Shown: positions 12,478 to 23,274, counted from the first letter of the stretch. The stretch is DNA of 64,000 nucleotides from Polyangiaceae bacterium (GCA_033763455.1 JANRKO010000006.1:1-64000), one strand, 5' to 3'. Made by a program: numbers and translations. The notes: generated by a model not told the origin, from the sequence alone.

Positions 12478-13716
12478 ATGAACGTTTGGCATAAATATCT
12501 GATCGAAACCGGCGGCATCGCTGCTCTGCTTGGGTCTGCAATCCCTGCAGGGGCAGTCGAATGTTCGACTCTGACGCCGGTCAACCCGGTTTACGGAACC
12601 GGGGGAAGTGCAGTGACATCAACGCTGAAGCGTGTCGCTGTAGAGCTTGCAAAGCTTCCCGACAATGATCCCGGAAAAGTAACCATATTTTATGCCGATA
12701 ACCTGGCTGCGTGCCCAGGTTACAAGGCCTTTCAAGATCAGAACCCTGCCGGGCTTACCTACAAGTACTGGAACGCCGCGGGAGTTGAGAGTACCTGCAC
12801 GGTGGCAATCACGCCCGTGCCTTTTGACTTCGCACATATGGGCAATGACATCGCCTACTGCGGCGCAGGTTACTCAAAGCCTGCAGACATTGGTGATTTC
12901 GGTGCACCGGTGCAGACCCTCAACATCATCACAGCGAAGAACTCCAGCCAGACCTCTATCAGCGCAGCCGCACTCTACTTCGCATATGGATTCAAGCAGA
13001 GCGGCCTCGCGGATCCTTGGACGCTGAACAACGGTGCGTCTCTTGTTCGCCGGAGCGCAACATCTTTTGTTAGCTTGCTTCTGGCCGATGCTATCGGTGT
13101 GCCGAATACCAAGATCTTAGGTACACCAGCTAACCCCAACACGAACCAGCAAGTCATCATCGATATCAATACGTTGGCTGTGAACGGGGTAGAAGCGCCT
13201 CTCGGTTACGCTTCCGGCTCGGCGGTAGATGCTGCAATTGGTACTGCAAATGAGGTGAAGACGCTGGCTTACCAGCACAAAGATCAAACGTGCGGTTACC
13301 TTCCAGATTCGAACCCAACAGTTCTAGACAAGCGCAACGTGCGCGAGGGGCGGTATTTCCTATGGGCTCCCGGGCATTTTTATGGGCGGGTAACACCGGG
13401 AACAAACACGCTCACCAATCCGCGCGTAGCGAATTTATTCGGCTGGTTTGACGGATCGATTCCGGCGCCTGGGTTCGACGCTTTGGAGGTGATCAGCAAG
13501 GCGGGCGACATTCCCCAGTGCGCAATGCGCGTAAACCGGGAGGGGGTATTGGGGGCAATTAGCTCCTTTGCTCCTCCGGAACCTTGTGGTTGCTTCTTCG
13601 AGAAAGCGGCTACAGGGGCTGTACCTGCGTCGTGCACGCCGTGCGGTACCGATAACACAATCTGTGCGGGCACCGCTAATCCCGTTTGCCGCCGAGGATA
13701 CTGCGAAGCCTACTGA
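12478..13716 (+). CDS. Secreted Cys-rich protein, distantly PstS/PBP-like substrate-binding protein
   Basis: Signal peptide; VYGTGGSAV, VRRSATS and REGRYFLWAPGHF resemble PstS-type GSS, R...SGT and G.YP motifs; 13 Cys; GGAG before ATG 12478. Confidence 0.55.
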   Translation: MNVWHKYLIETGGIAALLGSAIPAGAVECSTLTPVNPVYGTGGSAVTSTLKRVAVELAKLPDNDPGKVTIFYADNLAACPGYKAFQDQNPAGLTYKYWNAAGVESTCTVAITPVPFDFAHMGNDIAYCGAGYSKPADIGDFGAPVQTLNIITAKNSSQTSISAAALYFAYGFKQSGLADPWTLNNGASLVRRSATSFVSLLLADAIGVPNTKILGTPANPNTNQQVIIDINTLAVNGVEAPLGYASGSAVDAAIGTANEVKTLAYQHKDQTCGYLPDSNPTVLDKRNVREGRYFLWAPGHFYGRVTPGTNTLTNPRVANLFGWFDGSIPAPGFDALEVISKAGDIPQCAMRVNREGVLGAISSFAPPEPCGCFFEKAATGAVPASCTPCGTDNTICAGTANPVCRRGYCEAY

Positions 13717-13735
13717 GCTTAGCCGAAGGGAATTA

Positions 13736-14260
13736 ATGAGCATGAAACGCATCTATTTTCAGTTAACGCTTCTCGCGGGAACCGCTGCTGGAGCCGTTTT
13801 TGCCTGCGATAGCAGCGGCGGAAACGAAACACCCACGGGGCCCATCGTGATTGGCGCTGGCGGTTCTACAACAAGCGCGGGAGGCGGCAAAGGCACAACG
13901 GGGGGCAACGCTGCCGGAGGTGTGCCCACAAACGCGGGTTCGGGCGGCAATGCTCCGGCGGCAGGCGGTGTAACTGCAACCGGAGGTACGGCTGCGACAG
14001 GCGGTACGCCGTCCACAGGTGGAAACTCCTCAGTAAGTGGCGGCGCTGCGGGGGCTGCGGGGCAGCCAGCGGCGGGTGGCACCGGCGGATCAGCGCCCTT
14101 ACCAGCTTGCAGCCAGCCAAACCAGTCAGGCTGTTTTGAAAACTGCGTCCCCAACCAAAGCACGCACTTTTTGAATCAGTGCGGGGGTACCTGCTTCGCT
14201 TTCAACAACACTGAGCGTCTCCCACAATACAACGCTGGCGTTCTTCCTCCTCTCCCTTGA
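13736..14260 (+). CDS. Gly/Thr-rich lipoprotein with small C-terminal Cys domain
   Basis: Lipobox VFAC, long Gly/Ala/Thr linker, C...GCFENC.P....FLNQC...CFAFNN..RLP. Confidence 0.7.
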   Translation: MSMKRIYFQLTLLAGTAAGAVFACDSSGGNETPTGPIVIGAGGSTTSAGGGKGTTGGNAAGGVPTNAGSGGNAPAAGGVTATGGTAATGGTPSTGGNSSVSGGAAGAAGQPAAGGTGGSAPLPACSQPNQSGCFENCVPNQSTHFLNQCGGTCFAFNNTERLPQYNAGVLPPLP

Positions 14261-21629: not shown

Positions 21630-22676
21630 ATGAAGCTATTTTTGTGCAGTCTGGCGGCGCTTCTCGTTACGGCGTGCATTCCCGAGTTCCCCGAGGATAC
21701 GGCGCTCGTGGACAGCCCCCGTGTGTTGGCCATTCGCGCCGAGGCGGCTGAGGCGGCTCCCGAACAAAGTGTGAAGCTATCGGTGCTCGTGGCGGCCCCG
21801 CCTGGTGTCGCGATCCCCACTCCCAACTGGGCATTTTGTTCTGCGAGAAAGCCCCTAGCCGAGCTTGGCCCAGTCGCATCGGATTGTCTCTTGCCTGAGA
21901 GCGCCGGGTTCACCACTCGCGAAGCTATTGGGTCTGGCTTGGATGCCGAAGCGTCGCTCACCAAGGATGCGTGCAGGCAGTTTGGGCCCATTCGTCCGGA
22001 GCCGAAGCCAGGGCAGCCTGCGGGGCGTCCGGTGGACCCCGACGTAACGGGTGGGTTTTATCAGCCGGTAGTGCTGGAGCTCGGCTCCGAGGTTGCGCTT
22101 GGGTCCGTGCGCCTCATCTGCGGCTTGACCGGCCTACCAAGAGAGGAGAGCGTCAAATACAACGCCCAGTACCGGGCCAATACCAACCCCGTGATCGACG
22201 AGCTAAAAGCCACAGAGGGGGGCGCCCCTGTTTCGATCCGAAGCGCTCAATCCGGCGAAAAGGAGCTGACGCTACACAAGGGCAGCTCAGTGGAGCTTTC
22301 AGCGCTCTTCGCCAGCTGTCCAAGCGAGCCCATTTGTGGAGATGGCGTGTGCAGCGCAATCGAATCCAAAGAAGAATGCGGTGAGGATTGCAATCTTCAG
22401 CGAGGTTGCAGCGGTGCAGAAGAATATACCTGGTTTAACCCAGTAACTCGAGTCGTTGAGCAGCGTCGAGAGAGCGTGGTGGCGTCGTGGTTTGCCACAG
22501 GGGGGAGCTTTGGGGCGCAGCGCACAGGGAATTCGGGCGCGGAAGGCGCGCGTTCAGCGCTCAGCAATCGCTACATCGCACCTATGCAGGTCGGCCCGCA
22601 AACGCTCTGGATTGTCCTGCGCGATGATCGTGGTGGGGTTGGTTGGCAGACGTTAAACATTTTGGTCCAGGATTGA
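21630..22676 (+). CDS. Cys-containing lipoprotein associated with the TBDR
   Basis: AGGAG RBS, lipobox VTAC, PRVLAIRAE, CGDGVC...E...C..DC and WIVLRDDRGGVGW. Confidence 0.75.
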   Translation: MKLFLCSLAALLVTACIPEFPEDTALVDSPRVLAIRAEAAEAAPEQSVKLSVLVAAPPGVAIPTPNWAFCSARKPLAELGPVASDCLLPESAGFTTREAIGSGLDAEASLTKDACRQFGPIRPEPKPGQPAGRPVDPDVTGGFYQPVVLELGSEVALGSVRLICGLTGLPREESVKYNAQYRANTNPVIDELKATEGGAPVSIRSAQSGEKELTLHKGSSVELSALFASCPSEPICGDGVCSAIESKEECGEDCNLQRGCSGAEEYTWFNPVTRVVEQRRESVVASWFATGGSFGAQRTGNSGAEGARSALSNRYIAPMQVGPQTLWIVLRDDRGGVGWQTLNILVQD

Positions 22677-22815
22677 CGGGACTCGGGGGCAACCGAGGCC
22701 TGGCGCCAGCGAGCTCAGCCGCAACAGCCGAAGCTTTAGTGCCCGCACACTACCTGAGCATTCTGATCGAGCATTGACGCGGCGCTCCGAGCGGGCCAGG
22801 CTTCGCCGTTCCCCC

Positions 22816-23274
22816 ATGCTGACGATGAAGACCAAGTACGCCTTAAAGGCATTGGCTCAGCTCGCGGCAGCGCCTCCGGGCGAGCCGATGCTCATTGCTG
22901 ATATTGCGGCTAGCGATGAGATACCGCTCAAATTTCTGCAGCTGATTTTGCGCGAACTGAAACAGCATGGAGTGCTCTACAGCAAGAAGGGGCGCGGTGG
23001 CGGTTACTTGCTTGCGCGAAAGCCGAGTGAGGTGACCATCGCTTCAGTATTGCGAATCATGGATGGCCCGATTGCTCCGGTGCCCTGCCTCAGCAAGACG
23101 GCGTATCATCGTTGCGAAGGGTGTGCGGACGAGTCGCGGTGCGCAGTTCGCCTGGTACTGAAAGACATGCATGAGGCTACGTTGAGAGTGCTGGAACGCA
23201 CCACGCTGGCCGAGCTTGCCATGCATGGCGGCCAAGGCGGCGTGGCCAAGGCGCTCTCCAGTTACAGCATTTAG
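22816..23274 (+). CDS. Rrf2 family transcriptional regulator (CymR/IscR-like, 3-Cys cluster)
   Basis: KTKYALKAL, IP.KFL.LIL..L, S.KG.GGGY.LA and DGP.AP.PC.S...Y..C.GC.DE..C. Confidence 0.92.
   Translation: MLTMKTKYALKALAQLAAAPPGEPMLIADIAASDEIPLKFLQLILRELKQHGVLYSKKGRGGGYLLARKPSEVTIASVLRIMDGPIAPVPCLSKTAYHRCEGCADESRCAVRLVLKDMHEATLRVLERTTLAELAMHGGQGGVAKALSSYSI

Follow-up and report, generated by a model that had tools for sequence, protein, structure and literature searches.

A Myxococcota envelope cassette with a Ton motor and a predicted PstS-fold protein, and its link to sulfate transport genes

What does a bacterium take up with a gene cassette that combines a Ton motor of its own, a TonB-dependent receptor (TBDR), a porin and several lipoproteins, and that stands back to back with a sulfate import operon? 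This question is raised by ten co-directional open reading frames (ORFs) on the plus strand, positions 12478-23274, of a 64,000-nucleotide stretch of DNA from a Polyangiaceae bacterium (GCA_033763455.1 JANRKO010000006.1:1-64000; the window hereafter means this whole stretch). We lean to the answer that the cassette captures a sulfur anion, be it an oxyanion or an organosulfur compound, at the outer membrane with energy from TonB and feeds the sulfate importer Sbp-CysTWA. The observation that carries this answer concerns the product of its first gene, P1. One clade of P1 proteins, and only that clade, adjoins sulfate-transport and Rrf2 genes, and it is almost confined to genomes that possess Sbp.

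The cassette is composed of the following genes:

P1, 12478-13716, plus strand: predicted PstS-fold binding protein, secreted, in which the anion pocket is remodelled; 13 Cys, Cys-knot extension at the C-terminus
P2, 13742-14260, plus strand: lipoprotein with a Gly/Ala/Thr-rich linker and a C-terminal Cys domain ending in LPPLP
P3, 14257-15897, plus strand: predicted porin of 16 strands, OprP/OprO-like, with an N-terminus of low complexity and a loop resembling an EF-hand
P4, 15894-16862, plus strand: beta-rich lipoprotein with a possibly DUF2135/YfaP-like C-terminal part
exbB, 16906-17676, plus strand: Pfam MotA_ExbB (PF01618), 105.2 bits, above cut-off
exbD, 17689-18114, plus strand: Pfam ExbD (PF02472), 92.1 bits, above cut-off
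tonB, 18166-18876, plus strand: Pfam TonB_C (PF03544), 59.9 bits, above cut-off
TBDR, ORF from 18819, likely ATG 18873, end 21617, plus strand: TonB_C, CarboxypepD_reg, Plug and barrel domains
P9, 21630-22676, plus strand: Cys-rich lipoprotein of an unnamed Myxococcota family
rrf2, 22774-23274, likely start 22816 or 22825, plus strand: Rrf2-family regulator, Pfam Rrf2, 118.6 bits

From P1 to tonB the genes are separated by a gap of 25 nt, two overlaps of 4 nt and then gaps of 43, 12 and 51 nt. The tonB and TBDR genes overlap by 4 nt if the latter starts at ATG 18873, P9 follows after 12 nt, and rrf2 lies about 100-140 nt beyond P9. On the opposite strand, 252 nt upstream of P1, begins the divergent sulfate operon, here listed from its first gene:

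porinS, 10760-12226, minus strand: porin, Porin_O_P (PF07396), E 6.6e-10, 39.2 bits (cut-off 20.9)
sbp, 9632-10753, minus strand: sulfate/thiosulfate-binding protein, NCBIfam NF008022, 472 bits (cut-off 288), and TIGR00971, 458 bits
cysT, 8805-9629, minus strand: sulfate importer permease, Pfam BPD_transp_1
cysW, 7906-8808, minus strand: sulfate importer permease, Pfam BPD_transp_1
cysA, 6845-7909, minus strand: sulfate importer ATPase, Pfam ABC_tran and TOBE, in one operon with sbp

This sbp gene is the sole copy found in the genome. An earlier note on the window had described nine tightly packed genes followed by rrf2 and divergent from porin-sbp-cysTWA, and this arrangement stands. The same note had claimed that the cassette holds no siderophore, sulfatase or sulfonate-monooxygenase gene; indeed, none of these families was matched by any cassette protein in Pfam and NCBIfam scans. 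P1, P2, P3, P4 and P9 matched no Pfam or NCBIfam family at all (for P1, at E <= 10 and E <= 0.01, respectively).

We therefore turn to P1 at the level of structure. Its profile reached PstS chains of the PDB at E 0.5 only, and a single-sequence PDB search with P1 of a related locus (L037) gave no match. The AlphaFold2 model of P1 is confident (pLDDT 89.8), and its residues 33-370 superpose on PstS 4ecf with Z 25.4 and rmsd 2.5 Å, 254 of 260 residues being aligned (VIA-align). By the same method, other fold matches are ModA (Z ~16) and the sulfate binder SubI (Z 15.7, 8% identity). All top structural matches are PstS proteins (Foldseek E 1.6e-10). A Sec signal with an AxA-type site is situated immediately before the invariant C29, and no anchor is present. 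According to its signal and its model, then, P1 is a secreted protein of PstS fold. Thirteen Cys residues are conserved in it, and residues 371-412 form a Cys-rich tail.

The pocket of this fold deserves closer attention. In 1990, Luecke and Quiocho reportedly described Asp56 as the residue by which PstS excludes sulfate. In its passage on the binding site, PMC6549937 lists T10, S38, D56, R135, S139, G140 and T141 (E. coli numbering) as phosphate ligands; D56 is given there only as a phosphate ligand, and E. coli PstS is stated there not to bind sulfate. We checked this numbering on the translated K-12 gene. In the alignment of all P1 proteins, the loops corresponding to the four phosphate-binding loops of PstS fall into discrete motif types. 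One group, which retains the Asp, has the motifs GSSA, GS-C-TG, x-S-D-V and R..S-G-T; the group of the window P1 has GGSA, G/A-A-C, (H/A)-M-G and R..S-F-V/A. In the window P1 itself, A78 stands for S38, M121-G122 for S55-D56 and F197-V198 for G140-T141, R192 (R135) and S196 (S139) are retained, and S44 sits at the T10 position. The mapping of D56 relies on the sister clade and on motif identity, not on direct superposition: the profile of the Asp-retaining clade matches Streptococcus pneumoniae PstS1 (E 8.9e-6) with the Ser-Asp motifs of both aligned. When hhalign was run against E. coli PstS, the sister clade gave a 20-column fragment around S38 only (probability 8.8%), with Ser on S38, and nothing useful was aligned for the profile of the window clade. 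Judged by these motifs, the window clade appears to have lost four phosphate-contacting positions of PstS, the equivalent of Asp56 included.

A quick maximum-likelihood tree (IQ-TREE, SH-aLRT support only) splits the P1 proteins into two clades with SH-aLRT 100, and the remodelled clade contains every sulfur-linked locus. Nested inside it is one pair, L044 and L059, which carries Asp and SGT again; as L044 is linked to phosphonate genes, this return would be a second transition that matches its context. The pocket type of P1 would thus explain the split between sulfur-linked and other cassettes, as far as motifs can tell. We also considered that P1 had been swapped into a conserved chassis, since a quick tree of the TBDRs looked incongruent with that of P1. 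Swapping is unsupported, as a TBDR tree in which the P1 clade is held as one group is not rejected by the AU test (p 0.478, lnL difference 0.48).

How widespread is the cassette? The P1 family is present in 35 of 401 genomes sampled from the phylum of the window. All records found are metagenome-assembled genomes (MAGs); the 28 named loci are all Myxococcota-type MAGs, a few of them labelled as Proteobacteria or as a beta-proteobacterium, and the named P1 homologues belong to Polyangiaceae or Nannocystaceae. From 67 stretches, with three duplicates removed and the window copy counted, 64 loci with P1 were obtained. P1 occurs together with P3 or P4 at 46 non-redundant loci, and the gene order is the same. 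Because of this recurrence, the cassette is not a chance assembly. Eight tracked genes were all detected at 27 of the 46 loci. The genes exbB-exbD-tonB are missing from seven cassettes, three loci (L032, L068 and L096) hold P1-P2-P3 only, and most of the other incomplete cassettes are cut off where the contig or the stretch obtained ends.

P1 genes also occur alone, in nine cases, none of which has sulfur neighbours. In six of these (L038, L046, L047, L061, L064 and L066), one or two Ser/Thr kinase genes, often with genes for TPR proteins, lie within 5.5 kb. Five of the six kinase-linked copies keep the Asp of PstS, and L046 has Pro there. Their setting hints at a sensing role.

Next, we compared the neighbours of the cassettes. 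Window proteins and a set of flank proteins served as queries, and sbp, cysT, cysW, cysA or porinS was counted at an identity of at least 45%; downstream flanks often cover only about 1 kb. Sorted by the residue at window position 122, P1 has Gly or Asn in 29 cassettes (the remodelled type), Asp in 12 and a third type in five. Sulfate-transport genes adjoin 11 of the 29 Gly/Asn-type cassettes and none of the 17 others, and Rrf2 genes adjoin 10 of 29 versus 0 of 17. The arrangements differ from locus to locus. It is divergent in the window and in L087; in L075, rrf2-sbp-cysTWA runs straight into P1; sbp-cysTWA together with a sigma-54 activator lies upstream in L033, in the same direction as the cassette; rrf2 and sbp are found downstream of P9 in L073, L080 and L086; and orthologues of porinS adjoin the cassette in L036 and L039. 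Other sulfur-related neighbours are a cystathionine gamma-synthase beside a remodelled-type cassette (535 bits, cut-off 513) and a TauE-family exporter. DUF6691 genes (L040, L063 and L077), for which NCBIfam gave no name, are presumably linked to sulfur as well and serve as a lead only.

Two further neighbourhoods of remodelled-type cassettes also contain sulfur genes. In L039 (887-3088) and L040 (4787-6913), which come from genomes of two families, the gene immediately next to the cassette encodes a protein of 700-730 aa in which a type I cysteine dioxygenase cupin is fused to an FAD/NAD(P)-binding oxidoreductase; NCBIfam gives it no specific name. In L053 (2580-6587), a TauD-family gene and the gene of a family 2A encapsulin cargo cysteine desulfurase (NF041166, 863 bits, cut-off 800) are located directly upstream of a remodelled-type P1.

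The same picture emerges from whole genomes. At E <= 1e-30, 63 of the 401 sampled genomes have an Sbp match: 13 of the 14 with a remodelled-type P1, 5 of the 21 with other P1 types and 45 of the 366 devoid of P1. Within the window's own family, the remodelled type scores 3 of 3 versus 1 of 10, and Sbp went unmatched in five genomes of this family, 97-100% complete, whose cassettes are of the Asp type. The cassette of G254 shares its contig with Sbp at a distance of about 14 kb, and in G067 the operon porin that adjoins the cassette has an Sbp-like gene as its immediate neighbour.

Cassettes of the other P1 types have different company. The neighbours of L044 are an ABC system and the genes phnW and phnX, each of which scores above its cut-off; we had at one point taken this locus for a sulfur-linked one on account of its Aminotran_5 domain and ABC system, and rejected this when the neighbours proved to be phnW and phnX. 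L037 adjoins a PhoB-like regulator and a purple acid phosphatase, and L050 adjoins PhoB/PhoR-like genes; a PhoB-like neighbour of the sister cassettes scores 264.6 bits, below the cut-off of 296. No pst, pho or phn gene adjoins any of the 29 remodelled-pocket cassettes. The earlier note had proposed a survey of cys versus pst neighbours as a check, and the sulfur link has come through it. Its broader claim, a sulfur-linked TonB uptake route that feeds Sbp-CysTWA, gains comparative support for the window copy from the neighbours, the co-occurrence with Sbp and the apparent pocket loss, but does not extend to the entire family. Where the PstS-type pocket is intact, the sister cassettes occur in phosphate or phosphonate contexts, and the family is therefore an oxyanion system and not a sulfur system. 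On balance, the evidence tips towards a Myxococcota-specific envelope cassette for a scarce oxyanion, of which the window copy would be a sulfur-directed version allied to Sbp-CysTWA.

We now turn to the remaining parts of the cassette. ExbB, ExbD and TonB were each matched by their family in one operon, together making up the energiser, and in the TBDR both the plug and the 22-strand barrel families of TonB-dependent transporters were recognised (TonB_C 52.1 bits, CarboxypepD_reg 45.7, Plug 34.3 with cut-off 23.9, barrel 50.8 with cut-off 27; each of the four exceeds its cut-off). By these matches the four proteins are canonical. Among 37 TBDRs compared, the TonB_C domain is absent in six (L048-L051, L067 and L069), whose cassettes also lack exbB-exbD-tonB; the TBDR of L042 keeps the domain, though its cassette is without motor genes.

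The barrel of P3 is modelled with 16 strands at pLDDT 70-97. Its first Foldseek match is OprP (2o4v, E 5.4e-12, TM 0.63 normalised by target), OprO follows at ranks 4 and 7, and general porins come close behind. At the sequence level, hhalign of P3 with the Porin_O_P-positive neighbour porinS gave a probability of 82% and E 1.1e-5. The window P3 is not matched by PF07396 at E <= 10, and weak matches come from 12 of its 21 orthologues (best E 4.3e-4). The model thus makes P3 an OprP-type porin; the label OprO/P-like, given to it in the earlier note, holds at the level of fold, with weak profile matches on the side of sequence. In OprO/OprP porins the channel is lined by an arginine ladder and a lysine cluster; in P3, many Arg residues are invariant in the alignment (R198, R199, R401, R433, R469 and R541). 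Residues 371-384 form a nearly invariant stretch, W-x-D-x-N-x-D-G-x-V-x-x-x-E-L, which resembles an EF-hand calcium loop; EF-hand_5 matches it weakly in 2 of 21 orthologues, and the confidence of the model there is moderate.

Three lipoproteins accompany the porin and the receptor. P2 has an invariant lipobox Cys22, a long linker rich in Gly, Ala, Thr and Asp, and a C-terminal domain of about 55 residues ending in LPPLP, which is conserved in the window and in 20 orthologues. It was missed by tblastn, and direct inspection found it in nearly every cassette; this Gly-rich lipoprotein, correctly recognised as a gene in the earlier note, is a conserved core member rather than filler. P4, with its lipobox Cys19 invariant among orthologues, matched nothing in Pfam or in the PDB profile search, and a lead in the Atlas points to DUF2135/YfaP (TM 0.42/0.58). 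Its previous description as a YfaP-like lipoprotein is upheld for the lipoprotein, and the likeness to YfaP comes down to this lead. P9 carries an invariant lipobox Cys16 and a conserved CGDGxC...C..DC motif. It is beta-rich with Ig-like leads only, its Atlas relatives are unnamed Myxococcota clusters, and the PDB profile search gave no match.

The regulator exceeds the cut-off of the NCBIfam Rrf2 superfamily model (113.2 bits versus 73.3) and stays below those of the equivalogs IscR (65.7 versus 207.55 bits) and CymR (59 versus 195 bits). It probably controls both the cassette and the Sbp-CysTWA operon. Rrf2 genes are not found beside more distant cassettes outside the Polyangiaceae-type group, where a sigma-54 activator is often present instead. 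A sigma-54 enhancer-binding gene occupies the place of Rrf2 directly upstream of P1 in L033 (5691-6689), L034 (= L082 8477-9475) and L065 (4924-6750). Two DNA features upstream of P1 were identified:

Two overlapping palindromes TCTAT-N6/7-ATAGA, 12233-12257, no strand assigned: divergent intergenic region, candidate operator
Promoter-like TTGACC-17 nt-TAGTAA, 12343-12371, plus strand: upstream of P1

The palindrome pattern has two matches in the window versus 0.03 expected. It also occurs upstream of P1 in L074, L087 and L088, and in L095. As a mark of a genome-wide regulon it was rejected, for the genome contains six sites per strand versus six for the reversed control, and the closest second copy falls inside a coding region. 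We infer that the palindromes may represent a local operator. The promoter-like pattern (TTGAC-N18-TASTWA) matches once in the window versus 0.01 expected and, among 107 loci, once each upstream of P1 in L076, L077, L078, L086, L091 and L092 and nowhere else.

Taken together, these parts allow us to propose how the cassette might work. P1 would bind sulfate or thiosulfate as a fully ionised oxyanion, or else an organosulfate or sulfonate by its anionic head. We do not choose between inorganic and organic anions, because an organic substituent could be accommodated next to the Met, Phe and Val replacements in the pocket. Passage of the substrate across the outer membrane would be the task of the P3 porin and the TonB-energised receptor, with the lipoproteins P2, P4 and P9 tethering or scaffolding the components; P2 in particular might tether P1 or plug into a barrel. 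The released anion would then be imported by Sbp-CysTWA. A second set of ABC permeases was not detected among the window ORFs scanned, and the related flanks gave only cysTWA and one phosphonate-type ABC system; the lack of an inner-membrane transporter in the cassette would explain its dependence on Sbp-CysTWA. When sulfur is sufficient, Rrf2 would repress both divergent operons, perhaps through the palindromes at 12233-12257.

A bolder version, which we regard as doubtful, makes P1 a PstS-derived, disulfide-stabilised "sulfate-phore" held at or outside the outer membrane by P2 and passing inorganic sulfate or thiosulfate to the TonB-energised receptor. If true, this would be the first machine that actively takes up an inorganic sulfur anion at the outer membrane, the sister clade would do the same for phosphate, and four pocket residues would switch the specificity.

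Several observations weigh against sulfur capture. The fold of P1 is far nearer to phosphate binders (Z 25) than to SubI, and the sulfate operon already owns a porin and a binding protein, which leaves the need for a second route unexplained. Proteins of sulfur starvation are not usually expected to be rich in sulfur amino acids; P1, P2 and P9 contain 3.9-4.1% Cys plus Met versus 1.0-1.9% in Sbp and porinS. Sister cassettes adjoin PhoB/PhoR-like and phosphonate genes. In 15 of the 29 remodelled-pocket cassettes, the flank covered contains no gene for sulfate transport and none for Rrf2; one genome of the remodelled type (G126, 92% complete) has no Sbp match, and several Sbp matches are only 38-40% identical. 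Moreover, loci and genomes within a family are related, so that the counts given above are not independent events.

Could the ligand be something else? The pocket that replaced the phosphate site offers H120, M121 and C79, and the Cys count of P1 is odd, so that another oxyanion (molybdate, tungstate, selenate or chromate, all sulfate analogues) or copper held by His, Met and Cys comes into consideration. ModA is the next-best fold class of P1, L039 adjoins a molybdopterin oxidoreductase, and an exported molybdate-type binder working with a receptor has a precedent in ModA-IcmP, in the relevant part of PMC9769707. We nevertheless consider such a ligand unlikely, as H120 varies across the sulfate-linked subclades, no mod, tup, cop or cus genes were seen in the flanks examined, and the consistent partners are sbp-cysTWA and genes of sulfur metabolism.

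Uptake of phosphate or an organophosphate, with the sulfate genes nearby as incidental synteny, deserves somewhat less credence still. It draws on the PstS proteins that make up all top structural matches of P1, on the phosphate porin OprP as the first match of P3 and on the phosphate and phosphonate genes beside the sister cassettes. Those sisters keep the ligands that the window P1 is without, namely the equivalents of S38, D56, G140 and T141. The 29 cassettes of the window's type stand apart from pst, pho and phn genes, and their P1 type co-occurs with Sbp in all but one of 14 genomes; both observations speak against a phosphate function.

The direction of transport may also be questioned, since a receptor could work outwards, exporting or displaying the disulfide-rich P1 and P2, and the cassette would then be a device for secretion or assembly. 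The Oar transporter of Myxococcus provides a model for such a receptor. The CarboxypepD_reg N-terminal domain of the TBDR, the plain Sec signal of P1 with no anchor, and the Cys-rich nature of P1, P2 and P9, which is frequent in extracellular myxobacterial proteins, all agree with it. We find this improbable, as no result obtained here points directly to export, and the combination of porin and binder and the reliance on an inner-membrane importer encoded elsewhere in the genome fit uptake better; besides, export and re-capture can coexist. Iron uptake for the supply of Fe-S clusters, under an IscR-like Rrf2 and jointly with sulfate import, is very improbable: TonB systems classically serve iron, the best equivalog match of Rrf2 is IscR, Rrf2 has a Cys cluster, and cysteine desulfurase genes occur near two loci, but the IscR score is far under its cut-off and similar to that of CymR, no iron, siderophore, Fur or ferritin family turned up in the flanks of the loci scanned, and ferric-binding protein is absent from the top 50 structural matches of P1, whose fold is that of PstS.

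We return to the capture of a sulfur anion and to what it would mean. Passage of sulfate and phosphate through the outer membrane is normally ascribed to passive porins, and the known cargo of TonB-dependent transport consists of iron chelates, cobalamin, glycans, some metals and sulfate esters. If the cassette imports oxyanions, a large phylum of soil and sediment that has been little studied would possess an additional, energised route for capturing a bulk nutrient; if the anion contains sulfur, it would be a new route for sulfur uptake. The P1 family can be regarded as a natural experiment in anion specificity, with intact and remodelled phosphate sites in matching genomic contexts. In addition, a first functional handle is gained on four unannotated protein families, P1, P2, P4 and P9.

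Other parts of the window were also inspected. At 24654-29786, a dabA gene (PF10070, E 1.2e-258) and a gene for a dabB-like proton-pumping subunit, adjoined by a divergent LysR regulator, form a pair with a probable role in inorganic-carbon uptake, to judge from family matches. At 41878-45085 and 46676-48460, a DUF1592/DUF1588/DUF1595 protein is followed by DUF1552 (HXXSHH) proteins, and the same families flank the motor-less cassettes L048 and L051. A four-fasciclin-domain protein (29900-31849), a U32 collagenase-type peptidase (58157-60703) and a C25 (gingipain-type) peptidase (61459-63951) are encoded by ordinary secreted-protein genes for a myxobacterium.

Finally, we compared the cassette with known systems. 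In the full-text literature on TonB with sulfur limitation, on sulfate uptake in Myxococcota and on sulfate esters, we did not find a description of it. The TonB_C domain of the TBDR aligns with the initial part, ~90 positions, of the MxcH model (NCBIfam NF038079, E 2.2e-20), but the whole TBDR scores 72 bits versus a cut-off of 925 and no siderophore genes are nearby. With SusC/SusD, the cassette shares a CarboxypepD_reg-bearing TBDR gene directly followed by a lipoprotein gene. However, the TBDR has no SusC/RagA match in NCBIfam, P9 and P4 have no SusD match in Pfam at E <= 10, and the host belongs to Myxococcota, not Bacteroidota. The idea of a Sus-like capture machine, raised in the earlier note, is not supported in the sense of membership, on these grounds and on the relatives of P9, which are Myxococcota clusters only.

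An exported binder that cooperates with an outer-membrane receptor is exemplified by the hemophore system HasA-HasR. ModA-IcmP of Pseudomonas aeruginosa does the same for an oxyanion-binding protein, and the export of ModA depends there on the type VI secretion system (relevant part of PMC9769707), whereas the window P1 carries a Sec signal. For a sulfur source that enters through the outer membrane in a TonB-dependent way, the only precedent we can cite is SftP, a receptor encoded in the ats-sft cluster for sulfate esters of Pseudomonas putida S-313 (relevant part of PMC7711191). Compared by gene content, SftP is accompanied by sulfatase or dioxygenase genes, whereas the window cassette has none and a TauD-family gene appears at one related locus, L053; conversely, SftP is without a PstS-fold binder, a porin and the lipoprotein set.

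Closest in physical terms is the importer Sbp/CysP-CysTWA, which is adjacent to the cassette and co-occurs with it. In E. coli, two binding proteins share this one permease, and this case offers a model in which P1 might act as a second binder for CysTWA, even though P1 is structurally remote from sulfate binders such as SubI. With PstS and OprP/OprO, finally, the cassette shares the combination of an anion porin with a periplasmic-type binder, the predicted PstS fold and Arg135/Ser139 equivalents of P1, and the nearness of P3 to OprP. P1 differs from PstS in having no family-model match, in the replacements described above, and in its 13 Cys and C-terminal Cys-knot; by sequence and ligand residues it is not a member of the PstS family. 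The cassette also differs in its setting, with no pstCAB adjoining and a TBDR, a Ton motor and three lipoproteins in its place. It thus resembles a hybrid, in which the logic of OprP and PstS would be combined with a TonB transporter and its lipoproteins and, possibly, with features of systems that pair an exported binder with its receptor.

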